Virus record (IMG/VR): IMGVR_UViG_3300021400_000025
Span: 22,479-86,478 of that record
Source of the DNA: a virus
Lineage: Duplodnaviria > Heunggongvirae > Uroviricota > Caudoviricetes
Length of the DNA: 64,000 nt
Reading direction: 5' to 3' (one strand)
The translations under genes were made by a program, and so were the position numbers. Below, one piece after another: positions 1,261 to 45,848 of the stretch (its first letter is position 1; each line of letters opens with the position of its first letter). The notes beneath the pieces are model-generated. The model did not search any database. It saw only the letters and a program-made list of their open reading frames with translations, and was not told the origin of the DNA.

Positions 1261-3345
1261 TCAGTAGTTGTTCTTGGAGAGGATGTTGATGTTCTTGTTC
1301 ACAATTCTGATTCTGCTCTTCATCTCCTCTTCTGTGTTGGTGTAGAGAACAGGATACATGAATGGTTGAAGCCCCATGTGCCCAGTCTTGATGAAGAGAT
1401 CGTCGCCTAGATCCACAAGGGTGGTGTTGGTGGTGAAGCATGCCATTGAGATTCCGTGCGTGTAGATGGGGTTCTCTCCTGCGCCTGGCTGATACACAGT
1501 GTATATGTCTGACACAGCAGGCACCTTCTCCATAATCATGTTCACTATGTCGTTGGTGTTGAATGGACCGAATCCCACCATTCCATTCCTCACATCGAAG
1601 AAGTAGGTCATCAGAGAGCATATGCGCTCCATGACTTCGTATGACGATATGGAGTAGTCGTCGTTTATCCTCACTTCAAGCCACGAAGCGTCATATCTGC
1701 TGTCCCCATCTTCTATTGTTGGAACCGTGGTCTTCTTGCTTTGGCGCAGAATCTGCCTGCCTTGCTCCTCTGGCACGCTGGAAATCTCGCATCTTATGGG
1801 GAGTGCTGGCATGAACACAGGTTCGTGGCACATGTCCTTCACATCCACCATCATGGACTTGCATCTTTGAACCAGTTGGTCGTAGTTGATGTCGTCTACG
1901 TCCCCGAAGTTGGTTATGTACCAGATGTAGACGTTGTTTGAATCCACTGCGTCTGAAAGGGAAGCCCCACCATATTTTGTGAACCTTGCTGGGTTGAGGT
2001 AGTATCTGGGGTTTTGTCCATGCCGTTCTGACATTCCCATCTGGACAAGCCATCTGTAGAATGTGGCGGTGTATTCCCAGTTGTTCATCACCTTCACAGA
2101 GTTGAACATCCCAGATATGGAGGGTTCGTTCATGATGAAGAACTCATAGTCCTCTTTTGTCACCAATCTGTTGTTCATTTTGAACCAGTGGGGGGCCCTC
2201 TCCCTCACTTGCTCCACCCCTTCCTCCTTCAAGGCCGATGTGGATGATGTCAAGACCCGACATTCAATCTCCTCCACCTTCTGCGCATCCGCACCGAACA
2301 TTCTGGCATATAGTTCTGTTGAGACGCCGAACATCGCCGGCCCATGCACGAACGCCAATTTCTCCTCGCTTGGCTGGACACCTCCCTGCATCCCTTGCGT
2401 TTCAAGGTAGAACACATACAACTGCGAATTGGGCGTCAGCTTCCTCGTGGTGATGCCATCCCCGAACTTGATTACCAGTTGCTTAATCTCATTCAGCTCC
2501 ACATTGAACACATTGCAGTCGGTTTCACCACGCCCATTGTAGAGGAAATTGTGTATCTGGTCAGTGTCGTTGACATTTGGAAGCCCCTTGAACAGACCCA
2601 TGTTCGTGGGGTGGAAGAAGTTCACGTCGGTGGATGTCCAATCCACTTCGTCTGGGTTGTCGGCCTTCATCTTCTCGACAACTTCAATTGCGAACACATG
2701 GGCTGTGCTGGCGTACTTCTGCTCGTCCATTTCGCTTCTCACCATTGGAAGGACAAAAGTCTCGAAGTCGGAGCCATTGGGGGTGAACACTGTCTGGTAT
2801 CTCTTCCACACCCCATTGTGAAGAACCAAATCATACGGCTTTCCCCGTTCCAGGTTCTTGGGGATGATGCAATCGCGCCATGTGTAGGGCGAGTACGAGT
2901 AGTATTTCCCATTGCTCGTCTGCACCATCGCGAAAGGGGGTATTTTGACGTCTGAATCCAAGTCCTCGTTGACCAAATCCCCAGCATCGTCTATTCTGAA
3001 CATGGCCGTGGATGGGGTTATGCCCTATGCGTTATACCCCAGAAGTTTCGCTATCCGCACTATGTTCTCATAGTATTGCGACTGCGAGAACATGGATTCC
3101 GACGCAGCATGGTTCAACTGGTATGTCAATGTCTGGTACATGGTCGCAACCAGATCAACAAGAATCGCTATGTTGGAGCCAGGATACACCTGGTCTCTCA
3201 CAGCAGGATCTTCAATCAACTTGCGTATAATCAAATCCCTCATCTGGTATGCGTTGAATGTCGCATACTTTATGGGAAAGTCCTGTGACAATGAAACATT
3301 TTCCTTGGAAAACCTCTTCTCGTCGTTGTAGTTGGATGATGCCAT
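1261..3345 (-). CDS. Baseplate wedge subunit, T4 gp6-like (694 aa, one in-frame TAG at 3025-3027)
   Basis: ORFs 3025..3399 and 1261..3003 are in frame across a TAG; YPGSNIAILVDLVA..ESMFSQSQYYENIVRIAKLLGY, IKFGDG and APHWFKMNNRLVTKEDYE match gp6-family motifs. Confidence 0.85.
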
Positions 3346-3365
3346 TTCTCTATTTCCTCTTGTGG

Positions 3366-3434
3366 TATTTACCATGATTTTTCCAAAGAAAAATCGCAAA
3401 AACCTCTCAGTTTTTGTCTTGTTTTTCGTAAATA
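3366..3434. promoter_or_regulatory. Divergent pair of late-promoter-like GTAAATA motifs
   Basis: TATTTAC 3366-3372 (minus, before gp6-like gene) and GTAAATA 3428-3434 (plus, before scaffold/capsid); resembles T4 late TATAAATA. Confidence 0.7.
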
Positions 3435-3469
3435 TATGTAGTGTTCAAGAAAAGAAAGTTGGTTCAAAG

Positions 3470-4516
3470 ATGAAGGTTTCGGAGACAACGCAGAAGATTT
3501 ACGATGGAGTATCAAGCATTCTCCAGACGCATGGGCAGAGTCTGACAAAGGCTCAGGTCTATGCAATAGAGAGCATGGTTGAAACCATTGAAGAGTCTGT
3601 AGAGAAAAGATGCCTTGAGACAACGCAGAAGATTCTCGCCAAGAAGGAAAGGTTGGTTGAAGAGGCTAGAATGGATGTGGGAGAAGATCAGCATGGTGTC
3701 TCCGAGGACATGTTGAAGAAGGTCGATTAGCTGGTGGAGAGCAGGATACAGAAGTTGAAGAAGGAGATGCCCCAGGTGATGGATTATGCGAGGATGAAGA
3801 AGCTGGAGAGTTGCGTTGAATCCATCAAGGAGTGCGTGGGCTACAACGCCGACGAACAGGTGGATCGCGTGGCGAAGGAGAGCGCGAAGATGCTCAAGAC
3901 CACCAAGGCTCTGGTTGAGACCCAGGCAAAGCAGATTTCTGAGAAGAGTGCTTCCCTTGTGGAGAGCAGAAAGTCCATAACGGAACTTAAGCAGCAGGTG
4001 AAGCAGATGCAGGCAAAGATAGAAGCGAAGGAAAAACAGATAGTTGAAAGCACGAAGAAGAATTCAGAACTTGTGAACCAGGTTCAGAACCTTCAGAAGA
4101 AAGTTGAAGAGAGCAGGAAGATTAACGAGACGATTGAGGAAAAACGGAAAAGCGAATCATTGAGATATTACTTGGAACAGAAGATAGCGAGCTATCCCAA
4201 GTACGAAGCATCTCTTCTCAGAAAGCATTTCCAGAACGCGAAGAGCAAGGCGGAGATTGACGAGAACTTCCAAAAGGCGTTGTCCATGGTGGCGGAGAAG
4301 AGGGACGCGATGAGGACAGTCCAGGCAATTCCAGTGGCGAAGGTGAACGAGGTTCCGGAGAAGAGCAAGACGATTTCAGGTGAAACTATTGTCAAAGAGA
4401 ATGGTGGTTTCAAGCAGATGCAGACCAAGGAGGTTGACGATTCGTTTGTTGAGGTTGACTTCGACAACGATACCATAAGCCCCTTGGACATGCAGAAGTG
4501 GATGGACCGGCTTTGA
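3470..4516 (+). CDS. Prohead core scaffold protein, gp22-like (348 aa, in-frame TAG at 3728-3730)
   Basis: KKVD*LVESRIQK joins two in-frame ORFs; long E/K coiled coil; directly upstream of major capsid gene. Confidence 0.75.
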
Positions 4517-4556: not shown

Positions 4557-6179
4557 ATGTTTAGAACAAATTCAGATTACCAGAAGAAGCTGCTCAAGCG
4601 CTGGGCGCCGATTCTGGAGAAGGGCACGCCAATTGACAGCGTCGAGAAGAAGCTGATCGTTGCGCAGTGCCTTGAGAACACCCGCAAGGAGTTCTGCAAG
4701 AAGGGTCTCTTCACAGAGGCTGCTCCTACGGCTGTTGGCAACACGGTTGAACTCCGCAAGGACATGCCCGCCTATCAGAACCCAGTCGCCGGCAATGGCG
4801 TGTTGACGGCAAACGACTACATTCTCCCGAACGTGGTCATGCCTATGCTTCGCCGTATTTTCCCAACCCTCATGGCTCATGAGCTGGTTGGCGTCCAGGC
4901 GATGACCGGTCCTACGGGTCTTGTGATGGCTCTCCGCGCAGTTGCTGCCAACCCAGAGCGCGTGGGTCTTCCACAGAACTACGAATTCGGCTATGGCGAG
5001 AATGGCCGCATGAACCAGTCAAGGTTCACTGGCGAGTATGCCAAGAACACCAATGTTGATGTTGGAAGCGATGATTCCAAGCTGTTGAACAAGCTCTATG
5101 GCAAGGATCCTGATCTTGACAACATTGGCGCGTTCTTGAACGGCACCTATGGTTCCTACTCTGGCCGTGGCGTTCCTACAGGCGCTGGCGAGGGCTATGC
5201 CACAGGTGGTGGCTATGCTCAGGGTTGGGCTGACAATGGATATGCTGGTGGCAAGCCAGGTCCTTATGCCGAGGCGACACAGACGCCTCATCACTATGGT
5301 GAAGGTACTCCTGATCCAACCTTCGGCCACTGGAGGAACAACACGTATCCTCAGGCTACGCTGAAGTTCGAGAAGCGTTTCGTGGTTGCCGAGACCCGCA
5401 AGCTGGGTTCCGAGTGGACGCCAGAGGACGCTGAAGACCTTGAGGCAATGCAGGGCATCGACCTTGAGACCGAGTTGACGAACGTGATTTCCTATCAGTT
5501 GGGCGCAGAAATCGACCAGCAGATCAAGGAGAGCATGATTTACGCCGCTTGGGCTGATTCCAAGGTCATTGACGTGAGCCGCCTTGATGGTCTTGACCAG
5601 ATGGGCCGTATCGCCGCGATGTTGACCTTCGTGACCCGCGAGGCGAACGAGATCGCAATCAAGACCCGTCGTGGCGCAGGCAACTTCGTCCTCGCTTCCA
5701 CGACAGTCTGCTCCTGCCTCCAGCAGCTTGGCACGTCCAAGCTCGTCAGCGATGGCAAGACGATGCCTTCTGTCCCTGCTTCTGCAATTGGCGCAATGAC
5801 GAAGGAAGGTCTCATCAACGATGGCCGTCAGCTCCTCGTCCGCGACACCAACACCTTCGGTTCCTATGCTCTTGTTGGCTACAAGGGAACGCAGGCTGGT
5901 GACGCCGGCATCGTGTACTGCCCATACATCCCTGTGACCCTCTACAAGGCTGTCAAGCCCGAGAATGGTCTCAATGTGATTGGTGCCCGTACGCGCTATG
6001 GTCTGGTTGACAACCCATTCGATTCCAAGAACTACTACCAGCTCATCAAGTTCACTGGATTTGACACTGGTTACACACTTGGCACTGACAAGCGCACCTT
6101 CTTTGGTGATCCTATCAACTCTGATGGTTCTGAGTTCGCCGACAGCGCGTTCCAGCATCGTAGTGGTCTCATTGGCTAA
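4557..6179 (+). CDS. gp23: Major capsid protein, T4 gp23 family
   Basis: RWAPILE N-terminus, PMLRRIFPTLMAHELVGVQAMTGPTGLVMALR, ELTNVISYQLGAEID, YCPYIP, TRYGL motifs; strongly biased codon usage. Confidence 0.96.
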   Translation: MFRTNSDYQKKLLKRWAPILEKGTPIDSVEKKLIVAQCLENTRKEFCKKGLFTEAAPTAVGNTVELRKDMPAYQNPVAGNGVLTANDYILPNVVMPMLRRIFPTLMAHELVGVQAMTGPTGLVMALRAVAANPERVGLPQNYEFGYGENGRMNQSRFTGEYAKNTNVDVGSDDSKLLNKLYGKDPDLDNIGAFLNGTYGSYSGRGVPTGAGEGYATGGGYAQGWADNGYAGGKPGPYAEATQTPHHYGEGTPDPTFGHWRNNTYPQATLKFEKRFVVAETRKLGSEWTPEDAEDLEAMQGIDLETELTNVISYQLGAEIDQQIKESMIYAAWADSKVIDVSRLDGLDQMGRIAAMLTFVTREANEIAIKTRRGAGNFVLASTTVCSCLQQLGTSKLVSDGKTMPSVPASAIGAMTKEGLINDGRQLLVRDTNTFGSYALVGYKGTQAGDAGIVYCPYIPVTLYKAVKPENGLNVIGARTRYGLVDNPFDSKNYYQLIKFTGFDTGYTLGTDKRTFFGDPINSDGSEFADSAFQHRSGLIG

Positions 6180-8334: not shown

Positions 8335-9699
8335 TTATTTTATCTTCTCAGAATAGAAACCCGCTTTGAAGCCACATTCTCCTCCTGTGCCTGCTCCGGT
8401 TCTTGCTCCTACTGAGACCGAAATACCATTTGCTTGACATGAATCAAGAAGTCTTTTTCCTGCGATATATTTATCTCCCTTAATTTGGGACAATATAGCC
8501 ATTCTGCCCGAATCTCCACTATCAACCATAATTATTTTTTGATGGTTGTCTTTTACATAATAGTCAATGTAATATTTTGCAAAGAGATATACGAATATAA
8601 CTGCCCTTTCCCTATTCATTGATTCCAAATCGTTGTCTAGATTGACATTCATTTCGTCATCTTCAATTTTGTTCCTTGATGTTTTTGACATGGGTTTTGG
8701 CATGGTTCTTTCGTCCATTCCAATATACTTGCTTATTATTCTTTCAATCTCTTCCGTCTTTTTGCTTCCCTCTGGAAGAAATTGCATAAGTTGCTGGTAT
8801 GTTTTTGGATATGCCTTACCATTATCTCCACGCTTCATCAGCAATTGCTCAGCTTCCCCACAATTTTGTGGAATGAACCTTGATGTTATCACTCCACCAC
8901 TGCTTTTCACCTCAATGGAAGATTTGCCACTTTGGATGTCTCCCGCTTCGTCGGCAAGTTTGCAATCAGAAAATGTGAGAGCCAATGCCAATTCACCTTT
9001 TCCAACTGGTGCATTGTTCTTATAAAAGTTATTAAGTTTAGTGATTGCGTTGAATGCCCTAAATAGCTGATCCTTGTTGATTTTATTTTTTCCAACCTTG
9101 ATGTCATTGAATACTGTGTTAATTCTCATCAAATATACAACTTCCTTTGCTGGAATAATATCCATCAACTTTCTTGACTCACGAGAACCTATAAGAGCAG
9201 AAAAAGTCATGAGACTGCTACCTTCGTTTTTTGAAACAAGTTCAAGGAACAAGTCAGATGTCAGTTCAGGGGTAAGGTCGGTCCCGTTTTTGGATTTTTG
9301 TCCAAAGTCAATTTCTTTTAACTGTTGTGCAATTCGATCAAGATATTTCAGTCCCCCATCTTCCGACCCACCCAATTGCGTCAGTTGCTCTCCTAGTTCT
9401 TCAAGTTTCTTTGAGACATCTCCCTCAGGAACTCCAAGCAGTTTTCCAATTACCTATCCCTTGTTTTGAAAGTCCTTCCATGAATTAGTGTTTTTCAAGT
9501 TCTCAAATTTTCCTGATGTGTTATTCAATTTGGATTCATGAATGAATCCATTTCTATAAATTTGAACTAACTTGCATAAATCCCTATTGAATAGTTCTAT
9601 TTTTGGTGTTGTTTTCTCATTGACAATGTTAAGTGGATAGAATTTCACTTCTTGTTTCTTCTTATCGTCTATGTCAACCCATTTTATGTCCTTGGTCAT
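8335..9699 (-). CDS. Putative PD-(D/E)xK endonuclease (454 aa, in-frame TAG at 9454-9456), AT-rich
   Basis: ORFs 9454..9699 and 8335..9375 join in frame through TAG; GKGELALAL..AGDIQ..IEVKS motif; visibly more AT-rich than flanks. Confidence 0.55.
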
Positions 9700-9730: not shown

Positions 9731-9761
9731 TATTTACCATTGAGCATTGCAAATGTATAAT
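9731..9761. promoter_or_regulatory. Overlapping divergent promoters: late GTAAATA (minus) and sigma70 TTTACC-N17-TATAAT (plus)
   Basis: TATTTAC 9731-9737; TTTACC 9733-9738 and TATAAT 9756-9761. Confidence 0.6.
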
Positions 9762-10824: not shown

Positions 10825-11694
10825 ATGAAATGGCGAATCTACAAAGAAGATGTTGAAGAAGTGGACATCAAGAAGCTGCTCAAGATGAATGGCGTGACGA
10901 AATTTCCATCTGGAATGAAGTTTTCTGACACCAAGGCAGAGTGGGAAAAGCATCGGGGACATGCTGGAAAGAAGACCATCTACAATATGTGCGTTCAACT
11001 TGAGCATGCGGGTTGGAAGAGAGGTGATTGGACCACTGGTGGCATTCCAGATGGTTCCGCCGTGTCCAATTCTGAGAAATATACTTCTCCCGATGGCTAG
11101 ATAGTGATGTCATATTATGAATACTATGGGGCCACTGCCTATGACAACAGCTACTACATCACGTTCAAGTTGGCAGAAAGCCCAATGAAAGAGTCAAGCA
11201 GATTTGGCTTCAATGCTGGGGACGAAGTAAATCCAAAGGCTGAAGATAAGGCAATGGAAGTTCTTGCCAAGATGGAGCATGGAACTCCAACAGATGAAGA
11301 GTTTTACAAGACACCGTGCTTCAAGTTCCTTGATGTGAGATATGTTGAAAGCTGGGTTGAGTTTGACACTGTTGAGGGTTTGTGGTCAAGCAAGAATTGT
11401 GACTCCCGACTTGACGATGTTACTGACGAATTGCAACTCGCCAGCATGATGGTATTCCACAAGGACAATCTTCACATGGTGAACATTCCAACAAGATGGG
11501 TGTGGATATTCGGCGAAAATGCCGCTTGGGAAGATGTGTGCGAAGCCAGGATGCACTTCACTGGGGATGTTCCATTTGGCTACGGAGAAGAGGTCAAGAA
11601 TGAAATTCTTCAGGCTTTGCGTGGAAATGCCATTACCCACAGATGCTTGGAGAACATCATAACAAGTACGAAGAACAAATGGTACACGACTTGA
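10825..11694 (+). CDS. Hypothetical late protein (289 aa, in-frame TAG at 11098-11100)
   Basis: YTSPDG*IVMSYYEY joins two ORFs in frame; GTAAATA at 10787-10793 upstream. Confidence 0.65.
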
Positions 11695-14560: not shown

Positions 14561-14602
14561 TTAAGTGGTTCAACAACTATGTGATGGAAAGGCAGGTGTA
14601 GA

Positions 14603-25512: not shown

Positions 25513-25514
25513 TT

Positions 25515-26396
25515 ATGAAACGCACTATGAAGATAAATGAGAGCTGGGATCCAGACTATGACGATCAGCCATGCAACCAATTTGGGGAGAAGTGGCAAAT
25601 CGTCAAGGACACCTATTTGGATCAGGTGATTAAGGACATAATGGAAGACATCCAGATAGACCCCTACCATGATGGTCCGAAGATGGAGCGGCTTGCGCTT
25701 GGAAATCTTCACTTGTGCGAAGATGGGCATCTTATTGCCACAATCTACGGTGGCGCGAATGGTGGAGGGTTTCGTGGGATTGAGAGCAACTGGCCGTTCT
25801 ACATGTCCCTTGTCCGAAAGTTCCTGGGGAAATTGCTTGACTATGACAATAGGCAGTTCTTCAAGGATGTGTGGATGATTGACTGGAGCAACGATTGCTG
25901 CGATGATTGCTGGACATTGGTTCTCGGGCTTGAACTGACGGACAAAGAGAAACTTCAGATGATTGAATGTGATTTCCCAGTTCTGAATCCAGAAAAACTC
26001 CACATCAGTCTGGACGCTGCGGCAGACTTGTTCACCCCAATGCCGGTTGCCCAGAACGTACAGGCTTCAATTCCGCAGGCGAATGAACCATGCAACGAGG
26101 CTTCGTAGAAGAAGAACAACATTCCAAAGAACCCATACAACAGCCTCAAGAACTCAAAGACCTCCCAAGTGGACAACTTCGTGTTCGCGGAAATCCAATC
26201 CAACAGAAGGTCGTTCAACGTCTACTGTGGGAAGAACAGAAAGCGCATATATCAAGGTTCTTGTGGGAAGGACATACAGAGCATCTACTTCGATGGGACA
26301 TGCGTTGTTGCCATGTGCCAGAACAAGACATACATATTCGGCCCAAACGACATGAGATATCCATTGAAGAACTGGCGCAAGATCCGTGAATTTTGA
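25515..26396 (+). CDS. Two-domain protein (293 aa, TAG at 26106-26108) with C-terminal copy of the upstream domain
   Basis: EPCNEAS*KKNNIPKNPYN in frame; IPKNPYN..YPLKNWR(K/Q)IREF shared with 25231 gene. Confidence 0.75.
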
Positions 26397-27438: not shown

Positions 27439-27455
27439 TCAATGGGTAATTGGAT

Positions 27456-30329
27456 ATGGTGAAGATTGACTACACAGTTGAAACATTTGACGTACAGAAG
27501 ATACGCGACATAATTGAGCCAAACGATGGCTATTGCTGGGTCTACTATGATCCCCTGGGGATGAACCCAAAGCTTGACGAGAATGGCAAGATATTCTTCA
27601 AGTGCTATGAACGGAACACGCACAACCCAATCGTGGTTGAGGTGAAGAACTTCCCATCAACCCTCTGGCACAGGATTGACAAGTCTGACGAAATGGCGAA
27701 GACTGGCATGGTGGACGCATATGGCTTTCCAATCAAGCAGGAGGTTTTCGATAATGGGGCGCAGAGAAGGAAATGGGTCACTGCTTGGAAGAAACGCCCA
27801 GACTATTGTGAGAAGCAGATTGTCCAGAACCAGGATCCATGCGACGAGTTCATGCAGCAGATCTTCTGGCAGGAGGCTCAGGAGGAGACATTCAACAAGG
27901 GATTCCAGCGCGTGTTCTTCATCGACATCGAGACCGAGGTTTCGGCAACATCGCTCATGCCACACAAGGCGGTCGACAAGATTCTGATGATTACTGTTCT
28001 GGACTCAAAGGACTGGAAGTTCCACACATGGTCGTTGAAGCCATGCAAGAAACTGGATTCAGACCACATCTTGTACGACAACTTCAATGGCAACGAAGCC
28101 GAGATGCTCAAGCATTTCCTCTGTTTCTGGGCAACCAACTATCCTGACGTTGTGTGTGGATGGAACAGCAGATGGTACGATATGCCATACATAGTCAGGC
28201 GCATTGAGAACGTGCTTGGCAAGGCTAAAGCCAGATTCCTCTCGCCACTTGAAGACTACAGGATTGTGCATGAGAAGTCAGATAAGAAGGACGAAAACGG
28301 CAAGCGGATTGAGAAGGAGGAGATAGAATGGGTGAACATAGCCGGGATGTTCCAGGCTGACGATTTGGTTCTGTACTCAAAGAAGTTCAAGGTGAAGGAG
28401 GCGTTGGATGGTGGATATGGCTTGTCAAACGTTGGAATGGCAGAGGGTCTTGGCTCAAAGGTTGCGTATGAGACAACGCTCAAGGACTTGTATCTCACTG
28501 ATTGGCAGAAGTTCTACGAGTACAACGTCCGAGATGTTGACCTGCTTGCCGCCATTGAGAAGAAGTGCAAGTTGATTCCATTGGCGCGGACGGTTTCTGG
28601 CTTTGGATTGACGAACTACGACTTCATCTACCAGTCGGCACCATATCTCGTTCCAACAATCACCATCTTCTGCAAGAAGCATCGGGAGAACATGATATTC
28701 AACTCCTATGCCAACAACTTCCGCGAGAAGGTGAAGTTCGAGGGCGCATGGGTGATCCCCCCAGTTGTTGGACGATACATGTATGGAACTGCTACTGTGG
28801 ACTTCAACTCCTTGTATCCATCCTGCATGCGCATGATGAACCTCTCCATTGAGACATATGTTGGACGCATTGACGATGGGTATTCTGGCGAAGGTGGACT
28901 TGACAACGATTGGATGACAAGGGGTGGCATAGACGGCTATCCTGACGATTATGTGTTCAAGCTGATAATTGACCGAGTTGACATGCAGCGCGAGGTTGTG
29001 AAGGAGATTGACGCGAAGACCTTGAGTCATCTTCTTGACACCAAACTCATCATCTGCCCAACGAATATGACATTGTTCCTGAAGCACGAAGTCAAGAGGG
29101 GCGTGATTGCAGACTGGGCAGAGGTGTTCTTCAACCGAAGGAAAGCCACAAAGGGAGAGATGTTCAAGTGCGACTTGGCGTCGTCCAAGTGTCAGGATTT
29201 GGTGGAGAAGGAGAATCTTCTTACCAGAGTGGAGAACCTCAAGAACCTCCAACAAGCCTTAAAGATTTGCTTAAATTCAATCTATGGGGCCTTGTCGACG
29301 ACAGGATGTCCATTTCTCCATTCCATAGGGCTTGCGCAGTCAGTGACAAGGGCAGGAAGGTTCTGCAACTACAATGGACGTCTGTTCTACCAGAAGTGGC
29401 TCAAGGAGAACTACAATGTTGACGATGACTATGTGATTACAGCCTCGGGCGACACAGACTCGTACTTCATGAACCTTGAGGCGGTGACAAAGGACTTCAT
29501 CAAGAAGAATGGCTGGGACAAGAACATCAACAACTGGACCGACGAGCAGAAGTTGACCCTCTGGAACCACATGCAGAAGTTCACAGACGAATACCTTGTT
29601 CCACATGTTCAGGAACTCGTAACGAAGGAATTCCACACATCAAATGCAGCCCCAATGAAGTATGGATTGGAGTACATGACAAGTGGTGGAATTTTCGAGT
29701 CGCCGAAACACTACATCGTACACAAAATCGTGGACGAGGGTCCGAAGATTGTTGACAAGTTCAAATATACTGGAATCGAGTTGAAGAAGGCTGTCGTGCC
29801 ACCTGAAATCAAGAAGTTCATGAAGGACATCTATTTCACGGCAGTCCTTGACCCCAACTTCAATCTTGAAGCCGCAAGGAAGAAGATGGACGAGGTGTAT
29901 CAGGAGCTGTTGAAGATGTCCCCGAACCAGCTCGCCAAATGGCAGGGATATGGAACCGAGTCCCAGATGGATGGATTCTTGGTTGAGGCAAAGGGGGCAA
30001 CAGGCATTGGCAAGTGCGCGAACTACTACAACCAGATTGTGAAGAAGTTGAAGTTGGACAAAAAGTACGCGCTGATCAACGTGAAGGACAAGGTTCAGAC
30101 AATCTACATCAAGCCCTCAAACAAGTATGGAATCTCGCAGATTGGATTCCCACCAAAGCAGTGGCCGAAGGAGTTTGACGACATATTCGAGATTGACTAC
30201 CCGAAGATGATGGAGAAGGTTGTCATATCCCCATTGAAGGGAATGCTCAAGGCGTTGAACATGGACAGCCTAATCAAGTACAATCCGTCAACAGTTGCCA
30301 ATCTTGAATACTCAATTGATGACATTTGA
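27456..30329 (+). CDS. gp43: Family B DNA polymerase, gp43-like
   Basis: FIDIETE, CGWNSRWYD, YNVRD exonuclease motifs; DFNSLYPS, KICLNSIYG, SGDTDS polymerase motifs. Confidence 0.96.
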   Translation: MVKIDYTVETFDVQKIRDIIEPNDGYCWVYYDPLGMNPKLDENGKIFFKCYERNTHNPIVVEVKNFPSTLWHRIDKSDEMAKTGMVDAYGFPIKQEVFDNGAQRRKWVTAWKKRPDYCEKQIVQNQDPCDEFMQQIFWQEAQEETFNKGFQRVFFIDIETEVSATSLMPHKAVDKILMITVLDSKDWKFHTWSLKPCKKLDSDHILYDNFNGNEAEMLKHFLCFWATNYPDVVCGWNSRWYDMPYIVRRIENVLGKAKARFLSPLEDYRIVHEKSDKKDENGKRIEKEEIEWVNIAGMFQADDLVLYSKKFKVKEALDGGYGLSNVGMAEGLGSKVAYETTLKDLYLTDWQKFYEYNVRDVDLLAAIEKKCKLIPLARTVSGFGLTNYDFIYQSAPYLVPTITIFCKKHRENMIFNSYANNFREKVKFEGAWVIPPVVGRYMYGTATVDFNSLYPSCMRMMNLSIETYVGRIDDGYSGEGGLDNDWMTRGGIDGYPDDYVFKLIIDRVDMQREVVKEIDAKTLSHLLDTKLIICPTNMTLFLKHEVKRGVIADWAEVFFNRRKATKGEMFKCDLASSKCQDLVEKENLLTRVENLKNLQQALKICLNSIYGALSTTGCPFLHSIGLAQSVTRAGRFCNYNGRLFYQKWLKENYNVDDDYVITASGDTDSYFMNLEAVTKDFIKKNGWDKNINNWTDEQKLTLWNHMQKFTDEYLVPHVQELVTKEFHTSNAAPMKYGLEYMTSGGIFESPKHYIVHKIVDEGPKIVDKFKYTGIELKKAVVPPEIKKFMKDIYFTAVLDPNFNLEAARKKMDEVYQELLKMSPNQLAKWQGYGTESQMDGFLVEAKGATGIGKCANYYNQIVKKLKLDKKYALINVKDKVQTIYIKPSNKYGISQIGFPPKQWPKEFDDIFEIDYPKMMEKVVISPLKGMLKALNMDSLIKYNPSTVANLEYSIDDI

Positions 30330-34567: not shown

Positions 34568-37500
34568 ATGAATTCATCTTTGACAAGACCATAGTCCCTT
34601 TAGGAACTCTACAAGACATACTTCTCCTTCGCCAATAGGTTCAAGTTCACCGACCTCCTTCGGAACTACATCCAGAACGAGGAGTGGAAGGACAAGTCGC
34701 AGGAGCCTGTTTGGGAGTTGCTTTCCAAGATCTCTGACGATATTGGGGCTGTCCTCACAGACGACATAGTGAACTACACAAGGAATGTGGTTGACATCAA
34801 CACATGCAAGGTGTCGGCGCTGTTTGAGCATGGCAAGGCGATCATGTACAATCTGGAGCATCTGGTGAATTCCCTTGCGTTTCTCCCCAAGAGGATGCAA
34901 TGCCTTGTCGACATCTTTTCGATAAACCCTGAATATCTGGTGGGCAACTTCAAGAACCACATCCTCTCTGACCAGGTTGTTCGCGAGATTCTAATCTATC
35001 TTCGGGAGAACTCCAAGAATGGGAGTCTTCTTGGGAACGACATCATGGACAAGTTGATGGAGGATCCGCATGGTCTTCTGGACATGGATGTGTATCGTAA
35101 TTTCGTGGTTGAGCTGTTCTACACCACCATTGTGCAGGCTCTGTCTGCCGGTTACAACACAGGTCTGCATCCACAAGACGAGGACACATAGACGATAGCG
35201 TCCAACATGTTGTTCTTCGAGCGGGAGCATCAACAGGAGATTGTTGCCAAGTTGGATTAGTACAAGTCATGGGTGGACAAGTTCATCTCCAATGAACGCG
35301 ACCACAAGTGGAATTCCCCAGACATGCAGATGTGGGATGTGGTGGAGACCATCAAGAACCAGAAGAGAATTTCCCCAAAGTTCAACCCATTCAAGATTGC
35401 CGACCACATCTTCCTCAATGGACTGAACCCCCAGAACAGTCTTTCCGAGGACGAAATGGATTTGGTGGAGAAGGTTCTTGAATGGAGATGGAAGACCAAA
35501 TATGACTATGAAAAGGAGTCTTTTTCATCCGACTTGTCCACTCAGGGCGCGTATTGGAAGGAGTTGGAATTCTGTGAATGGGTGAAGATGGTGATGTATG
35601 TATGCAACAATCTGAACAACTTCAACCAGGCTGTCATGTCATATGATGCGCCATCCAACAGATTCCTGTGCGATACTGGGACACTTGATGACTCCAGCGT
35701 GAAAGTTGTCCAGATGTTCTGCGAGGATGGGAAGCATGTGGTGGAGAATCCTTCCACAGGAGAGGTGGCATTGAACCGAGACATGATATTGAAGGTGGCC
35801 AAGTTCATGTGCGACTACGCATTCCACATCATGGATGTCAGGGAGAACATGAAGACCATCGCCCAGAAGCATGCGATGCGTGGCTCTTCCGCATTGCTTG
35901 TGCATCTTGTCAACGATTATCTGATGAAGGAGTTGCCGTTTGTGCGCGATGCCTTGCAGGAAGGGGATGTCCAGGACAACAGAATCAGATTTGGATGGGA
36001 GGTTTCTCCTCAACAATACAAGAACCATGGAAATGTCCATGTGCTTGAATACATGGACGACAACGAATACTTCAACATAGACCCAACAGAGGATGTTCGG
36101 TTCACCAACACCACCAACGCCAGATATTGGGAGCAGTTGGAGGGGATGGAGTATGACGATTCACTGGGCGTGTTCACCAAGGGTCAGATAAGGAAATTCT
36201 ACAGCGAGGTGCTGGGGGTGGGGAGGCTTCAGCCCAACAAGGCGAAGGACTACGATTACATACACGACTTCTTGGTGGATTTGTTCAAGATTGGCGCGAA
36301 TCCCATCAAGAAGAACGATGATGAAGATGGACTGGTGAACCCAATAGATGTCCTTGCCAACAATCTTGAAGAGGAATATGGCTACACGAAGCAGGATAGA
36401 TTGAACGTCCAGAACAATGTGGATTTGAGGAAAAGCCAGGAAATGCAGTTCATGGAGTATTTCGGTGGCAATCTGGACAATTTTTCAGGTCGGGGAATGT
36501 ACGACTACATGAACAACAGATTGTTCTATTGGAAGAACGATACATATGCATCCCATGTCCTGCATCCATTCATGTACAACTTGAAGCTGTGGAATCGGCT
36601 CAACAACATCATTGTCAATGGCTACAAGGACTATGCCAACGATTTTCTCCAGGACTACATGTTGTCCTCCAAGGTCAAGTTCGATGAGTTGTTTGGGAAA
36701 TTTGGCGAAAGCAGGAATTTCTGGAAGTACAATGTCATGGACTTGACTGGCTACACGACCAGATACGAGGCCGCGATCAAGGACGAACACAGGGACGATG
36801 ATGCTGGCACAGTAAGCAGTCTGACAGGTTATGATGGTCTGTTCTATCCAGACGCCGCGAAGGAGTTCCTTGAGTTGATGACAAGTGTGGGCGATGGGAA
36901 TTTTGAATTCAAAGACGAATTTTTCACTGGGGACGTGAGTGTATATGGGGAAGATGGAGACTGCTATTGGGATGATGGCGATGAAATTGAAAACAATGAT
37001 GACGAAATTGAGCACTGCTTCATCAATGGACGGGACGATTTCATCGCGCAGATCTATTCCGTGTATTGGCAGGTTGAGCGAACAACCTTGGTGGAAAAAA
37101 CGAGGGAGAGAAAAACTGGTGGTGGGTGGTATTTCAAAAAGGTTTCCGAGGACGATTCCTTCTACACCAAATGGTATTCCCACTTGAACTACACACGTTC
37201 TGAATACCAGAAGATTGCGATGCAGCTCTGGTATTGGAGGGACAGAATCAAGGAATTGATAACAACCGAGTATCCAATCAAGAAATATTGCCTTGACATA
37301 CAGGGGAACTCGCTTGTTCTGGTATCAACCTTCACATCAGACGACAAGGACAGCAATCCATATCTGATAGACCTTCAGTTGACGCAGACAAGGGTTGTTG
37401 ATGGCCTGGGCGTGGCTTCCACAAGAAATGCCAACAAGAATGTGTCGTTCTGCAGCAATGCCCTTCGCATGCCATCTGAGATGTGGGTGAGATGGAAGTC

Positions 37501-40500
37501 CAATCCCATTGCCATTCCTGCGTTCGACGTGTGGTACGATGTGAAGACTGGAGACATTGAGTTCGACAAGAGGTTCAGAAACGACTCATCCAACAACAAG
37601 GAGTTTGGGCAGTTGACCCATACAGACAACGATTGCAACGACAGCTTCAAGGTGGTGCTTTCAAGGTGGCGCGAGACATATGGAACTTTGCATGGCGAGT
37701 TGTTTGGACCCGGCCACAACAGATTCCCTGTGTTCTTCGATATGGAGCAGTCGGCGAATGTGTTGGCTCTTGCGTCGTGGTACATCATGCCTGAAGTGGA
37801 TAATGATGGGATTGTCCTTCTGGATGGGTTTGGAAGATCCATGGGGGCAATGTGTGGCAAGAATCCACTGCATGTGGTGTCGGTGGAGCGTCCATATTCC
37901 TCCACATTGGAGTACAATTGGACGAAGTATGAATCTGAAGTCTTCCCCACATTGAATGATAGTTCGGAGTATTGCTTTGACGCATATCACATCTGCCCCG
38001 CAGATGGCTCAATTCTTCTGCCGATGTATGGCTTTGAATGCTCTGATTCAGAAGACAACTTCAAGCAGATTTTGAAGTGGAAGATGTATGTCATCCCAGC
38101 GAGAAGGTTGAAGAGAAAGGACTTTTCTGCCAATCCCAGAATGATCCTCTTGGATGGGAAAATGGACTTGAACAAGGAGATTCATCTGGATTCATCCAAT
38201 TCGCCAAAGACGCTTTTCTTTGGGCACAACGTGAAGGTGTGCCGCAACACCAATGTGGTTTTCGCCCCATGCGACAACAATGGCGTGAACATGCTGAGGT
38301 TGGCGTTAATGGGCACTTTCGTGGATGGACAGGAACTTGATTCGTTCAAGTCCAGCTCTTGCCACGCCAAGACGAGATACGAGTTTGATTCGCGCAATGT
38401 GCAAGAGCTGTCCATGTTGAAGGGGAGGTATTTCGATCAGAGCGCGACACCTCAATATATTGATGATGGCATAAGGAGAAGGAAGTTCAACTCATATGAT
38501 TCCCTTGACAAGTACGCATTGGTTGTGGATTTCAAGATTCCTTTGGATGAACATGAAGTTTTCAAGCAATTGGGTGGACAACCCACTGGCATGGCATACA
38601 ACATATTGGGTGATGCGGGATGCATTCCACATTTCGCCAACCAGTCCTTGGTGAAGTATGCTGAATCTGATGGTGGCACCGCGTACACTTGGAAGAATGC
38701 CTTTTTGAATGGCAAAAACCACATGCAATTCGAGTTGTTGGGGCTTGATGATGTGAATGTCGCCAAGACCTATGACTTCATGCAGAGGATGGTGGTGGAT
38801 GATTTGACCGACAACTGCCAGACATTGTTGTGTCCGGCCAAATTCATGGACGATATATACCGCATATGGTGTTGTTCAAGGACTCGAAAGACAAGGTTTG
38901 GGGATTTCCCATATGACATGTATTTCGAGAGCGAGTACAAGGACTATGCCAACCCCAGATTGGAGTTCTACCCCGGCGAGAATGCGATGACATGGACTCC
39001 ATAGGGCGAGGATTTCGCATTGGACATTCCAGAGGGGCAGGATGTGCGCGCTGCGCTTGACAACACATATGTCTCAATCCTCAGAGCGTCTGATGGGATA
39101 ATCCAGAACGAAAAGAGATACATCTTGAGACCTACGCCAATCTCCCAGTTCATCTTTGGTGGAACTGATGCATAGAGTGGTGGGTATGTCAAGTGCAACC
39201 TCTCCAAGTGGCAGTCTGCCAACATAGTGGGCAATCAAAGAAGACCCGCGCAGACAATATTCACCGGAACCCAACCTCCATTCAACTACGACAACGATGG
39301 CGAGAGGATGTATTCTCTTCCCGAGGAACTGCAATATGGCAATGGCATATGTGGGGTGTCCGAGATTGGCTTGTCTGTGGATGTTGTGGATGTTGTGGTG
39401 AACCATGTTGCGATGGAGGACGACTTCCAGCCAATCTACAACGAAGATGGAAGCAGAAAGACCATTTCCAAGACGGTAAAGGCGGTGAAGCCAACTGTGA
39501 GGTTCAAGAAGTTCACGATGCCTGAGAACCCATCATTGTCCGATGTGGTGCAGAACAATGTGAGCGTCATAGCCCCAGGGGAGATTCTGGTGGTGTTTTC
39601 GCGCAAGAATGTGGACGACATAGCGAAGTATCACATCCTCAGCAAATCGTCCAATCTGTTCTTCTATGGATCTCTTCCAAAGAGTCCAGCCCAGCATCCC
39701 AACGAGATTCAATATTCTGACTTCAAGGTTGACACCAGCCTTAGATTGGAGCAGACATCTGAGACATCATGGAGATCCATTTCGGTGGATTCAGATGGAA
39801 GACCGTTGTTGGAGTTCAATCTGGATGATGTCAAGTCCAAGCGCAACGACAATCTCCCACCATATCATGTGGAGGTTGGTGGACAGGAATGGATTCTTCA
39901 ACAAGGTTCAGACTATCCTGTGAATGGCTACAAGAAATTGGAGATGGAGGACTTGCCAGAGATTCCGGCCCATAGGGGGAACACTGCGGCATACGCCATC
40001 CCAGACAAAGGTGGATTTGTGCTTGCTCACAAGGTCAAGGAAGTGCCCATGGGATATCTGGACTACCTCTATGTCAAGAATGGGGCGTTGGCGTTCAAGA
40101 TAAGCGAGGAGTCTGAATCCTTCTCGGAGACATTCTCCATGACACCCCCATTCTATGTGGACGAGGTGTTGAAGAACAAGTTGGAGGACTTGAACGATGT
40201 TTAGATTCTCCAGGATTCTTCAACGTTCATCCACCAGAGCGAAGATCCCAGCAAGGTAAGTGGTTGCTCTGCGCTCAATCCAGTGGCGATGGACGCGGTG
40301 ATTGACTATGGCATCGAGGAGGCGGATTTGGACGATTCCAGACAGATAATCTGCACTGAGGATGGAAAGGCGATCCAACTGGACAACATGGACATGAAGA
40401 CCAGACTTCTTCTTCAGCTTGATGAGAACGAGATTGACGATTATCTCAAGATATACACCAACTATGTGAGGGTGGACGACAAGCATGGGGATTGGCACTA

Positions 40501-41587
40501 TGATCTCTACTTCAACATCCAGAATCTGTTCAACCCACCATTTGAATACATCTCCTCCATCACACATCAACCAAATGTGCTTGTCCTCCCAGATTCTTAT
40601 CTGCGTCTCAGTGGGGACAAGTTCAAGAAGGTGTATGACGAGAATGGGGTTTGGACGCACAATGAGATAGACCCAGAGAAGGTTGAGCAGTTGAAGAAGG
40701 GTGGCAAGCTGTCCCTGTATGGGCAAATCAAGGCATTCTCCAACGACAGGCTGGTGGGCGTCAGATTGGTCAAGTTGTTCACCTACACAATCCACAACAT
40801 TTCGGACGACAAGCCAAAGTTCCTTATTGAGAAGACATTCGACATCACCAAGTCCTCCTTGACATCCTCGGAGGGGAATCCTCTGAAGATTGAGTTCTCT
40901 GATGTGATGTGGCAGATGAAGCCAGAATGGTACGAGGATGACCAGTTCAAGGTGTTGAAGGAAGATGTTGTTGTGGTGCAGCCTGTCAAGATACACTATG
41001 ATTGGAGTGCCACAGACGATAATAGAATAAGTAGAATATCATTTGACATAGTCAACGACATGATTGACTTCGACAATTGCCCTGAGTTGTGTGGATATGA
41101 CGAACATGTGCATGCGTTGAAGAGATGGGATGGCGAATCCACCCACACGCACTACGATAGATGGAGCGACAGATGCATGGAGCTGAAGGTGGATCCAACC
41201 ACCAAAATCCCCAGGATGACCTTGACTTGGGATGAGGGTTGTGGGTACAACTTCGAGACTGTGTATTTGAAGTGGAGAGTTCCAAAGGGATTCAACGCGA
41301 TGGACATCATGGACAGGCTTCAGGGATATGCGTTCTCATCCACTGCCGAGAATGTGGTGGTGGATTGCCACAACCCAAGTTCGCATCCAATGGAGATTGT
41401 TCCAGGAAGGATTGTGATGCGCGTTCCCAAAAAGGGCGAGATGTATCTTGGTCTGGAGCATTCCACCACGCATAGGAAGAATGGATTTGTCTTGAAGGGT
41501 CTAGCAAGCACTTTGAAAGAGGCGATAGGAAAGGTTGTCTCTGAATCTGAAATGAAAACAAACGCACAGAATAGAGAGGTGAAATGA
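34568..41587 (+). CDS. Giant 2339-aa probable virion protein (seven in-frame TAGs)
   Basis: One frame from ATG 34568 to TGA 41585-41587 interrupted only by TAGs at 34592, 34601, 35189, 35258, 39002, 39173, 40202; GTAAATA at 34552-34558. Confidence 0.8.
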
Positions 41588-41588: not shown

Positions 41589-42461
41589 ATGGGATATGCA
41601 GAAGTGAACAAGGAATTGGTTTCCAAATACAAGGTTGACGACACCATATTGGAATCCTACTTCAAGAATGCAAGCAACCAGAAGGTTGATGGGGTGGTGT
41701 TTCCATTGAGAATCGACAACAGGCAATATTGCTCCCCAACCGACTACCAGGGAAGCAAGCCGAGTTGCTGTGGCTACTCCACGGCGCAGATATTGGAATC
41801 CCTCAACTGGGCTAGAACAGGAAAGATTGTGCAGATGGATGCGGATCAGATATACGCAAAGTCCAAGGAGACGGACAAGTAGATGGGTCAGGGTGGAACA
41901 TATCCAGACTTGGCCATGGTGAAGGGGCTTGAACTGGTTCCATGGGGGTGTCAATATGCGTTGAAGACTTCCAATTCAGACGATGTGGATGTGTTGAAGC
42001 GGGCAATCCACCAGAACATGCTCGTGTCAGTGAACATGAACGTCACCAGAGACATATACGATTTGGATGGGGACAACTTCGTGTACAATGGCAATGGCAA
42101 CAAACTTGGTGGACATTCAATGGTGTGCTGTGGATATGACGAGGAATCGAAGATGCTCATCATGCAGAACCATTGGGGGACAATATGGGGGTTGAAGGGC
42201 TTCTTCCTGTGCCCATATGACGTGTGGAGAAAGCAAAACTCTTTGACTTGCTGGTATGAAAGGGTGGAAGCCACCACTTCACATGCGAAAAGGAGCAAGA
42301 CCACCAAGGTTGATGTGTCAAAACCCGAGAAGCCAAATGCTGAAAAGCCAAATGCCGAGGAACATCTTCCTGGCAAGAAGGAATCCACCACTCCTCCAGA
42401 TGTGGGTGTTTCAAGCAAGGAAATTGTAAATAGTATCACAACCAACATTCAACAAGGGTAA
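41589..42461 (+). CDS. Papain-like (C1) cysteine peptidase (290 aa, TAG at 41880-41882)
   Basis: QGSKPSCC (catalytic Cys) before the TAG; GGHSMVCCGY and QNHWG (His/Asn) after it. Confidence 0.85.
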
Positions 42462-42467
42462 AGTAAA

Positions 42468-45400
42468 ATGAGAATAGTCATAGACAAGGATGTTTCAGAG
42501 ATTCAACTTCTTCAGGAGTCATATGAAAAGAGCAAGCCATCGTACAAGGTTCTTGCGGTGGAGAATGGCGAGAAGTTCGTGTATGGAACGAAGATTCGCA
42601 ACATCAATGAAGCAGTTGACGCTGTGTATGACATTGCGTGGGACGAGAACTTCAACGATTGCCAATCTGAGATTGTGGAGGTGTTTGGCGAGAGCGAACA
42701 TGTGATTTGGTCTTCTGACCCCAAGGTGCAGGTTTGCGAGTCAGTGTTGTTCGTTGAAGCTGGAGACAACAAGGACGGCAGCACGGCGAACAAGGACGCC
42801 AAGACTGGTCAGAACCAAAAGGGTTTCTTTGGCAAGTTGAAGGATGCCGCTGGAAAGGCTGCTGCAGGTGCCAAGAAGGCTCTTCAGGGACTTGCCAAGG
42901 GACTTAACATAGTTGGGGCGATGACGAAGCAGTTCTCAAAGGACGCTCTCAAGAAGTGGAGAGAGGGAGGATTGTTCAACAAAGAAGGACGCATCACTGG
43001 TCTTGGCTACAAGGTCATGACGGGACAGGTGAAGAACACCATTCCAGTGGACACTGGAAACAAGAACGACGACATCACACAGGCTTGGAAGGTTGCGCAG
43101 TCAAATGCCATGAATGCCCTCAAGAAGCAAGGATATACCGTGAATGGCGAAGTCAAGGCAATTGTCAAGACCGACAAGGATCCAATCACATTGTCTGCTG
43201 ATGTGACTGACAAAGATGGCAACGCACAGACAATCGAGTTCAATCAGGATGGAACAATGGTTGATGGTGGTGCCCAGAATGCCCAGAATGGTGGCGAAGG
43301 TGCTAACGCCAATGGTGGTGGAAACAATGCTGCTGGAGCCAATGGAAAGGATGGTGGTGGAGCTGGTGGCGCAAACACCCAGCAGATAACTCCTGACCAG
43401 GCGCAGAAGAACCCCAAGGCAGCTCTTGGAAACCTCGCCACGCGCGTGGCGAACCTTGAAAGGGAGGTTGGAATTGCGGCAGAATCCAAGTGGAACTACA
43501 ACAACGAGCAGAAGTTCGCCAAGAAGGATGGATATGAGAGGCAGACCATCAAGAGGTTCTTCAACGAGATGAACGATGAGTCTGTGAAGAACATCAAGTT
43601 CATCCGCCCAGATGGCACATTCAAGTTGTATGACATCTCCAATGGATCATAGGCGTATTCTGAATTCAAAAAAGACTTCAGGGAGTCCACATAGAAGGTT
43701 GAGAAGTCTGGTGACTTCAAGGAATGTCGGGTTGTCATTGAATCTTCTGGAAGCAGAAGCAAGTTGAATGGCTTCAAGTTCTCCGACTTTGGCGTGGCTG
43801 ACGATTTCGATTCAGATTCCAAGACCATCATCATCAGGGAGAGCGTAATCAAGAATGTTCCTGAAAAGCCAGATGGTAAAAAAAAAGCAAATGAACCACA
43901 ACATGAATCCATTGTGAATGAGTCCTCGATTGAGGGCATCTCCAAGAATCCTGAGCCAAATGGATTCACATTGGAGTTGGACAAGAAAGATCCACTTGAA
44001 GAGGTCAAGTCCCTTCTTGCAGCCATGAACAAGTACAATGGATTCGACAAGAAGAAGATTGATGACATCCAGGATGGTTCAATATCAGATGGCGTGACAA
44101 CATATCCAGACGTTCCAACTTTTGAGACTCCAAAGAAGCAGGAACCACTGGAAACTCCAAAGCAGGAAACGCCAACAATTGAAACTCCAGATGTTGTGAA
44201 GGAAGCCGAGGGCGATGATGATGCTGGTGGTGGAGGAGACGACGCTGGTGGAGACGCTGACCCATTTGCTGGTGGAGGAGACGATGGTGGTGGTGATGAT
44301 GCTGGTGGTGGCGACGATCCATTCGCTGGAGGAGGAGATGACGCAGGTGGGGGAGATGATGCTGGGGGAGATGCAGGCCCATTCGCTGGTGGTGGTGACG
44401 ATGCAGGTGGTGGTGGAGACGCAGGCGCCGCAGACATGGGTGGTGGAGGAGATGCCGCAGTAGATGGAGCCACAGAAGACAATCCCACCTCAGGAGAACC
44501 TGCACCAGACGATGCAGTGAACACTGACGCCCAAGACAATCCCAAGTCCCAATACAACATCAATGTGACCAAGCCTTTCAACCAGGACGAGAATTTCTCC
44601 CTCAATGATGAGGAGCAGAAGGAGTTCTTTGGGAAGATTGACCAGTTGGTGAAGATCCCCGACATGGACAACTATTCGCTTTACCTCTACCAGATAACGC
44701 CAGAGAACATGAACCTTGACGATGTTCACTACATCGAGGCTCTTTACCAGTTGTCTGTGAAGTTGGGGCTGCTTGAGGACATCTACGCCGACTCCAACTT
44801 GCTTGACAAGTACAGCTCCTACAAGTATTCTGTTCTGAAGGATGGGGAGGATGACGCGACCCAGGGGGAGGACGCATTGACTGTGACCGAGGGGACGACC
44901 AAGGTTCAGGACGATAACGAAAAGAAGGCTGCTGAACTCAACAAGAAGATGAAGCAGAAGAACGACGACAGGCGTGGTTCAGCATGGACTAAACTTGACA
45001 AGGACAAGAATGGCGTTGACAAGCCTGTGATAATAGACACAAGGAAGGATGGCTGGACATTCGACGGAAAGGATAATGACAAGAAGTTGATTGACTCCAC
45101 CGACGAAGGCAGTTTCCATGGACTTGGTTGGATTGCCACCTTCAAGGCAATGCAGTTCGGCTCCCCAAGGTATCTCTCCCTCTACATCAAGAGGAATGGG
45201 GATGCAAAGGCAGAGGAACAGTGCAGAAAATACCTTGAGAAGCTCTCCTATACGGAGATTGAGTTCGTGAACATCGACGAGGTTGACCCATACGAGTATG
45301 TCTACAGAATGGGTCAGGGAATGAAGACCCCAGAGACTGTGAGGACGGAGAAGTATGCGAACGAGGAGGTTCCAGTGACCTATTTCGAGAACAACGAAAC

Positions 45401-45848
45401 CAAGGTTCCAGAGTCAATCCCAGGGGACATCAAGCGCGATGTCAAGAGGGTGATAACCAAGTTGAACGCGGAAATCCGTGGGACAAAGCAGTTCAACTTC
45501 TTGAAGGAATGTGGCGTTGAGAAGCCACAGCTTGACCATCTTGAGTTCTTGACGCACTACAAGACAGCGCAGGTCAACGAGACATTGAGCGAGACGACCT
45601 ACAAGTTCGTGCTGAAGAAGAACGATAGCATGATGAGCAGGATGTTCTTCTCCAACATGAAGGAGAAATTGTTCAGGTATCTTGGGACATTCGCAACCAA
45701 GTACAACATGGAATGTGGATGCGAGGCAACGCCAACTGCAGTGACAATCAGCTTCATGAGAAGCGATCTTGGAAATCCTGGATACGATCTTGAGACAATG
45801 GTGGACGCAGACGTTGCGCTTCCAGAGACAACAGCGGACCAGATTTGA
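42468..45848 (+). CDS. Large multi-segment late protein (1126 aa, TAGs at 43650 and 43692)
   Basis: Two ORFs join in frame; G/N/A- and G/D-rich low-complexity linkers; GTAAATA at 42426-42432; several xES motifs. Confidence 0.75.
44213..44465 (+). repeat. Coding low-complexity GGDDAGG(DPF)AGG repeats
   Basis: Repeated GATGATGCTGGTGGTGG-like units inside CDS 42468..45848. Confidence 0.8.

Follow-up and report, generated by a model that had tools for sequence, protein, structure and literature searches.

The complete 418-kb T4-like rumen megaphage represented by IMG/VR record IMGVR_UViG_3300021400_000025 very probably decodes UAG as glutamine, that is, it appears to use genetic code 15. The record comprises 418,068 bp with direct terminal repeats, is estimated to be 100% complete and has a GC content of 46.7%. 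The stretch under study, here called the window, is a segment of 64,000 nucleotides (bases 22,479-86,478 of the record), and positions below are those of the window unless marked as genome positions. An initial annotation of this stretch had read TAG as a sense codon, probably for glutamine, and that reading was borne out by the continuity of reading frames across TAG, by the residues aligned to TAG columns in three related genomes fetched whole, by some 170 homologs of two proteins drawn from databases and by a tRNA with a CUA anticodon encoded in the same genome. We regard the assignment of TAG to glutamine as a well-supported case of the code-15 pattern that has been described for crAss-like, Lak and Jade/Sapphire/Garnet-type clades of gut phages (10.1101/2021.08.26.457843).

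All 25 TAGs listed in the initial annotation were present and in frame, and they fall within 13 open reading frames (ORFs) otherwise free of TAA and TGA (Table 1). The individual proteins said to be interrupted were also correctly described. The phrog_219 match of the gp6-like baseplate wedge protein (residues 46-218) crosses TAG 3025, TAG 22229 separates IRMPQGV from TIGEHAF in a leucine-rich repeat (LRR) inside a Pfam LRR_5 match at residues 326-455, and TAG 41880 lies between QGSKPSCCGYS and GGHS...NHWG, splitting the papain-type Cys of a Peptidase_C1/C39_2 protein from its His/Asn. Profile matches from PHROG and Pfam span TAGs in several families, both in the window and in the genome.

Frame continuity was assessed genome-wide with a simple codon-usage score trained on long standard ORFs. 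Beyond the TAG 'stops' of confident ORFs a median of 347 further codons passed before the frame closed, and this sequence scored +0.18 per codon, whereas medians of 12 and 10.5 open codons, with a score of about -0.05, were obtained after TGA and TAA, respectively. Re-calling the genome with TAG as sense reduced the number of genes from 523 to 406 and raised their mean length from 215 to 288 amino acids, while reading TGA or TAA as sense gave lower coverage and a lower score. The resulting gene set contains 262 in-frame TAGs in 111 of the 406 genes (about 27%). Between tables 11 and 15 genes thus merge and coverage rises, as the sense reading implied, although the gain in coding density is modest: in the span 1261-45848, 52 ORFs became 37 genes and coverage went from 86.9% under table 11 to 90.9%, with no change elsewhere in the window, a gain of 3-4 points. 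Gene ends were said to be TAA or TGA, and the genome-wide set has 319 TGA (79%) and 87 TAA (21%) ends, by construction of a TAG-sense set; TAG itself is not enriched at 3' ends, with 13 sites within the last 15 codons against 13.7 expected, which argues that it does not behave as a stop followed by a back-up.

Both TAA and TAG are rare in this genome because the dinucleotide TpA is strongly depleted. The TpA odds ratio is 0.42, an extreme value (0.51-0.53 in the relatives), that of TG and CA is 1.33, and the plus strand of the window contains 266 TAA, 256 TAG and 1,756 TGA triplets. The TA-rich hexamers that remain are largely promoter-like motifs.

The identity of the inserted residue was addressed by aligning all proteins of the genome, with X at each TAG, to those of three related megaphages (two records bounded by terminal repeats, 414 kb and 434 kb long, and a fragment of 202 kb). 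TAG could be aligned in 342 columns, opposite Q in 91 of them, K in 32, E in 31, another TAG in 31 and D in 24, and the two commonest partner codons were CAG (53) and CAA (38). As CAA is two mutations away from TAG, its position as the second commonest codon points to function rather than mutational adjacency. Log-likelihoods derived from the substitution spectrum of each ordinary amino acid in the same alignments were -802 for Gln, -1014 for Glu and -1025 for Lys, and Gln came first in each of the three genome comparisons separately. The three related megaphages show the same use of TAG, with 124, 118 and 54 unique in-frame TAG sites inside alignments against 3-10 TGA or TAA, and with Gln as the best fit to their own TAGs in each genome.

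Database homologs agreed with this assignment. When 120 database homologs of the large terminase subunit (TerL) were aligned, column 121 held Q in 38 of 42 homologs and column 418 held Q in 18 of 19 close homologs, and residue 98 of the peptidase, encoded by TAG 41880, is Q in 33 of 46 homologs. Seven peptidase homolog ORFs begin exactly at residue 99, which suggests that gene callers using the standard code had cut them at the same TAG. Every aligned relative has Q at sites 21488, 35189, 40202 and 41880 of the window. Thus the choice of glutamine, put forward in the initial annotation as probable, is favoured by TAG columns in the three related genomes and in database homologs alike. As a separate observation, the large terminase gene (genome 341390-343846, minus strand) carries 12 in-frame TAGs, 11 of them within the N-terminal 235 residues that precede the conserved ATPase domain, which is the highest TAG density among the genes examined individually. 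In public protein databases this phage group is represented by pieces truncated at TAG through standard-code calling, such as peptidase ORFs starting from the Met after the TAG and a 515-residue terminase fragment.

ARAGORN detected 33 tRNAs and a transfer-messenger RNA (tmRNA) in the genome, none of them within the window. Of the decoding factors that the initial annotation proposed to seek in the rest of the genome, a single tRNA-CUA was found outside the window (genome c268611-268687; locus L076, 4611-4687, minus strand), and domain searches of the complete genome gave neither a PCRF release-factor domain (PF03462), as expected of RF1 or RF2, nor a GlnRS/GluRS-type catalytic domain (PF00749). 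Charging and termination must therefore rely on the host. RF2 and aminoacyl-tRNA synthetases are optional in code-15 phages, having been seen in some Lak, Agate and Jade phages. The tRNA-CUA is 77 nt long with a short variable loop, scores 33.2 bits with the Rfam tRNA model against a gathering score of 29 bits, and has a normal anticodon loop (CUCUAAA), a GG D-loop and a UUCGA T-loop. It does not descend from the tRNA-Gln genes that the phage carries. The gene stands by itself, with a terminator-like hairpin on either side and a TATAAT box of its own, and its promoter, GTATAATTGAATGTGA, is kept at the syntenic site in two relatives. An Rfam E-value scan of 9 kb around the gene returned the tRNA alone and no hepatitis delta virus-like ribozyme; the theta-ribozyme family (PMC10879173) may not be in Rfam. 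The tmRNA (genome c238260-238595) lies inside the main tRNA cluster, encodes the tag peptide GNDYSMAA and is near-identical in relative G001 (GNDYRMAA); it would be of interest in a phage whose late mRNAs carry UAGs at which translation may stall or terminate before suppression.

The TAGs are not evenly distributed among the genes. Two promoter-like classes, defined by motif matches and not by mapped transcription starts, were recognised upstream of genes: a sigma70-like class (TTGACA/TTTACA-N17-TATAAT) and a class with the motif (G/T)GTAAATA, the latter type accounting for 117 of the 139 TAAATA hexamers. Genome-wide, 36 of the 57 genes directly behind GTAAATA carry TAG, compared with 6 of the 63 behind TATAAT (Fisher p = 6e-10). 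In front of virion genes the (G/T)GTAAATA motif stands 20-45 nt before the start codon, frequently in divergent pairs, and is taken here as a late-type motif. In the window it occurs just upstream of 9 of the 13 TAG-bearing genes, and the other four follow those on the same strand. All replication genes of the window and the gene for the major capsid protein (MCP) are free of TAG. Recoded codons are thus concentrated in late and structural genes while early and replication genes are compatible with the standard code, although the split is not absolute.

Conservation was considered as the full cause of the absence of TAG from early genes and was rejected, as poorly conserved early genes are TAG-free too. 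The difference between the promoter classes holds at every level of conservation: poorly conserved early-type genes have no TAG among 89 Gln-type codons, and in the late class the TAG share of Gln codons shrinks with rising conservation, from 13% to about 5-6%. The possibility that TAG serves as a stop for early genes was likewise discarded, there being no 3'-end enrichment and a single early-type gene with a TAG near its end (genome 333662-335581, residue 632 of 639). Two divergent late-motif pairs were noted in the window, at 3366-3372 (minus)/3428-3434 (plus) and 19696-19702 (minus)/19729-19735 (plus), each motif 20-45 nt upstream of the ATG at which a TAG-bearing gene probably starts. At 34552, in contrast to this spacing, the motif is only 9 nt before the ATG of a 2,339-residue gene, and the mRNA of this giant gene may thus be nearly leaderless or be read from further upstream.

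Several observations weigh against glutamine decoding, or against so clean a division of the genes. Q makes up 29% of the non-TAG partner residues at TAG columns, compared with 51% for ordinary Gln codons, a lower share that we attribute to TAG sitting at variable positions. Single sites pair with K, E, T or D, and TAG 22229 corresponds to Thr both in the repeats of its own LRR protein and in relatives; sites such as this and 3728 (E, A or K) are merely variable positions. The gene caller was crude and some 5' ends are over-extended, so that about 20 of the 262 TAGs may be upstream of true starts. A TAA follows 11 codons after TAG 20924 and 17 codons after TAG 22421, and these two could equally be leaky ends. 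The early/late split has exceptions in both directions, in that some GTAAATA-headed genes (topoisomerase II at 54054) and the MCP gene are TAG-free and six TATAAT-headed genes do contain TAG. The complete relative G001 has no detectable tRNA-CUA.

The tRNA-CUA of the present phage is itself structurally odd. Depending on the register, it has either an A1.A72 mismatch or an acceptor stem of 8 bp, and either C at position 8 or no position 9, and its amino-acid identity is not readable from the sequence. In the 7-bp reading A1.A72 is unpaired and is accompanied by G73, G2-C71 and G10, while the 8-bp reading places an A.A mismatch inside the acceptor. The 7-bp reading resembles the identity set of E. 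coli tRNA-Gln, features which presumably suit charging by GlnRS. With the supE-type amber suppressor tRNA-Gln of E. coli the phage tRNA shares the CUA anticodon with U35, the weak or unpaired 1:72 pair (in the 7-bp register), G73, G2-C71 and G10; it differs in having C3-G70 instead of G3-C70 and in the unusual geometry of its acceptor and D-arm.

This oddity leaves room for the view that TAG is sense but stands for another residue (Glu, Lys, pyrrolysine or a mixture), set by whichever synthetase charges the tRNA-CUA, a view that we consider very unlikely. The mix of K, E and D found at TAG columns follows the way in which ordinary Gln codons are substituted, even though K and E together (63) approach Q (91) in number; the likelihood gap between Gln and Glu or Lys exceeds 200 units; and the conserved columns, namely TerL 121, peptidase 98 and residues 208 and 1879 of the giant protein (TAGs 35189 and 40202, Q in all three relatives), are Q. 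ARAGORN labelled the tRNA 'Pyl' purely from its anticodon, and although its shape is non-canonical, the normal GG D-loop and UUCGA T-loop are unlike those of tRNA-Pyl.

More unlikely still is that TAG is a leaky stop, with the fragments as the main products, partial regulated read-through and no true reassignment. The phage encodes no RF2 or other code-change factor, host RF1 should still compete at UAG, and the two TAGs shortly before TAA noted above would fit such a scheme. In contrast, however, TAGs cut essential single-domain proteins (the terminase ATPase, gp15, the tail sheath and tube proteins, and the peptidase, which is severed between its catalytic residues), whose truncated products would be useless. 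Sites at which TAG and CAG interchange freely among relatives, such as 34592 and 34601 in the giant gene, the retention of a dedicated tRNA-CUA and the lack of enrichment at 3' ends also speak against a leaky stop. Finally, the TAGs might be read as pseudogenisation or assembly errors in a standard-code metagenomic contig, for which the origin of the genome from a metagenome assembly without an isolate might be cited. In practice this reading is refuted: in-frame TAGs number 262, while reading through TGA or TAA brings essentially no gain; each of three independently assembled relatives has 54-124 in-frame TAGs inside alignments; a cognate tRNA-CUA is present; and database homologs are cut exactly at the same TAG.

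Taking TAG as glutamine, the promoter classes suggest how the code could be deployed during infection. Early genes would be translated under the standard code of the host, with UAG terminating. The phage suppressor tRNA, transcribed from its own early-type promoter, would be charged with Gln by a host enzyme, and as it accumulated, late mRNAs (those for the baseplate, tail, terminase, peptidase and giant proteins) would come to be read at full length. Recoding would in this way act as a translational gate on late genes, to which drift may add TAGs at weakly constrained Gln positions; the larger share of Gln codons taken by TAG in poorly conserved late genes suggests that the pattern is partly drift. 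A code switch that gates late functions was proposed by Borges et al. (10.1101/2021.08.26.457843). In the present phage recoding is linked unusually clearly to two recognisable promoter classes, and the hypothesis of late-gene gating will be testable once the host is found.

T4 uses the standard code. Its temporal programme, in which sigma70 promoters are used early and late promoters with the motif TATAAATA are then read with gp55, shares with the phage described here two promoter-like classes and the T4-like core genes. The late motif differs (TATAAATA in T4, GTAAATA here), and the late class of the present phage is in addition marked by TAG.

The code-15 phages of Borges et al. share with this genome in-frame TAGs aligned with Gln, a phage tRNA-CUA, recoding of structural and late genes, replication genes compatible with the standard code, and recoded modules scattered across a large genome. 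The proportion of recoded genes is also similar, with a mean of 26% in the Sapphire clade against about 27% here. In contrast, whereas Borges et al. tie recoding to low GC and to TAA as the preferred stop (10.1101/2021.08.26.457843), and their code-15 phages are low in GC and TAA-preferring, this genome is 47% GC and uses TGA for 79% of its stops; it further differs in combining T4-type core genes and a T4-late-like promoter motif with the lack of RF2 and of a GlnRS/GluRS-type synthetase domain. Proof of code 15 by proteomics has been reported for crAss-like phages (PMC9523058). Recoded rumen jumbo phages have been reported in bulk with a criterion of a 10% density gain (PMC13037316), a threshold below which the gain of 3-4 points in this genome falls. 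Pipelines that rely on a gain of 5-10% would therefore miss this lineage, and the frequency of code 15 among large phages of moderate GC may be underestimated. When this genome and its relatives are annotated with table 11, roughly one gene in four is broken, including those for the terminase, tail sheath, tail tube, baseplate and 2,339-residue protein.

The label 'T4-like' given in the initial annotation proved right. Matches to PHROG and Pfam profiles placed within the window a gp23-like MCP, a gp6-like wedge, a family-B DNA polymerase, a helicase, a clamp loader and both topoisomerase II subunits, and outside it the large terminase, tail sheath, tail tube and gp15. The T4 core genes matched are thus gp23, gp17, gp18/gp19, gp6, gp15, gp43, gp44 and the gp39/gp52-type topoisomerase. 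The closest cultured phages by MCP and TerL, among GenBank phages, are of the T4/ViI type at 29-35% identity, and on this degree of identity the phage appears to be a distant T4-like lineage. The same annotation had considered a recoded lineage separate from the crAss-like and Lak phages. The separation from crAss-like phages stands because a contractile-tail set (sheath, tube, gp15, gp6-like wedge and gp23-like MCP) is present and not the podovirus module of Crassvirales. As to Lak phages, the phage does not look like one: its genome of 418 kb lies below the Lak mean of 562 +/- 44 kb (10.1101/2021.08.26.457843), its GC content is 47%, and its TerL and MCP are nearest to T4/ViI in a comparison with GenBank phages of which a tree with Lak sequences was not part.

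Of the features described, the suppressor locus most deserves further study. A TATAAT-type promoter is conserved there in three genomes with radically different RNA behind it. A DNA search with the tRNA-CUA of the present genome (G000) found no match in the relatives, the suppressors not being alignable as DNA, and Rfam detected no tRNA at the syntenic site of G001 and G003. For G003 a candidate cloverleaf was found by hand (L070, about 14600-14760, minus strand), with the loop CCCUAAC, an 8-bp acceptor and G+CCA. Relative G002 has a tRNA-CUA of 90 nt (L063, 10487-10576, minus strand) with an extra 4-bp hairpin whose triloop is CUG, a Gln anticodon. A U1-A72 pair was considered as a mark of Gln identity in the suppressors of the relatives and found weak, since many tRNAs of this phage start with U1.

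A broader proposal can be advanced tentatively, and we consider it rather doubtful that it holds as a whole. The phage may belong to a distinct lineage of T4-like rumen megaphages, comprising at least four large IMG/VR genomes and fragments, in which TAG came to encode Gln without low GC, by way of an extreme avoidance of TpA that left TAG and TAA scarce, with TGA as the default stop. The switch would be wired to T4-type early and late promoters, and its suppressor locus would be conserved and separately promoted, with the tRNA body replaced or remodelled between close relatives. If this were true, the remodelled body of the suppressor (short, with a CUG-tipped extra hairpin, a degenerate cloverleaf or none detected) would imply an unconventional recruitment of Gln charging.

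The genes of the window are collected in Table 1. For some genes the start codon falls inside the ORF and not at its upstream limit, the probable starts being at 3343 (minus), 3470 (plus), 19661 (minus) and 19772 (plus); the listed TAGs are unaffected.

Table 1. TAG-bearing and TAG-free genes of the window, with in-frame TAG positions and supporting features
Feature	Position	Strand	In-frame TAG	Remarks
gp6-like baseplate wedge	1261..3343	-	3025	residue 125 from upstream TTG; phrog_219; relatives AAG/CAG
Start of wedge gene	probable ATG 3343	-		late-type motif 3366-3372
Gene with no function assigned	3470..4516	+	3728	late-type motif GTAAATA 3428-3434
gp23-like major head protein	4557..6179	+		TAG-free; phrog_138, E = 3e-71
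454-residue protein	8335..9699	-	9454	late-type motif 9731-9737 (-)
289-residue protein	10825..11694	+	11098	late-type motif 10787; relatives K, Q or R
TAG-bearing gene	17931..19661	-	19320, 18168	late-type motif 19696-19702 (-)
Phage-tail-repeat (PTR) protein	19772..20959	+	20204, 20924	Pfam PTR; late-type motif 19729-19735
BspA-type LRR protein	20978..22474	+	21488, 22229, 22421	LRR_5, E = 3e-62, spans residue 418
409-residue protein	22957..24186	+	23386, 23563	frame continuity only; few homologs
Small gene	24183..24587	+	24285	second TAG 24570, 5 codons before TAA stop; without homolog support
351-residue protein	25341..26396	+	26106	aligned relatives
Family-B DNA polymerase	27450..30329	+		TAG-free; phrog_262, E = 2e-128
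Giant 2,339-residue protein	34568..41587	+	34592, 34601, 35189, 35258, 39002, 39173, 40202	seven TAGs; four ORFs under table 11
Papain-like cysteine peptidase	41589..42461	+	41880	residue 98; Peptidase_C1 and C39_2 matches
1,126-residue protein	42468..45848	+	43650, 43692	late-type motif 42426
TAG-free block of about 22 genes	45845..63414			clamp loader, both topoisomerase II subunits, DNA methyltransferase, sigma70-type factor

The weakest case among the TAG-bearing genes is that at 8335..9699, whose relatives are merely 24-26% identical. The tblastn alignments of the gene at 3470..4516 to nine related loci cross its TAG at 63-75% identity, and relatives of the LRR protein carry Q at 21488 and 22421. 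In the TAG-free block, gene number and coverage are identical under both codes. A TAG-free protein resembling S-adenosylmethionine synthetase is encoded directly upstream of the giant recoded gene (33458-34549, plus strand) and contains all three MetK domains, the central one falling just under the Pfam cut-off. A sigma70-family protein with regions 2 and 4, also TAG-free, is encoded within the block of replication genes (60754-61563, plus strand).

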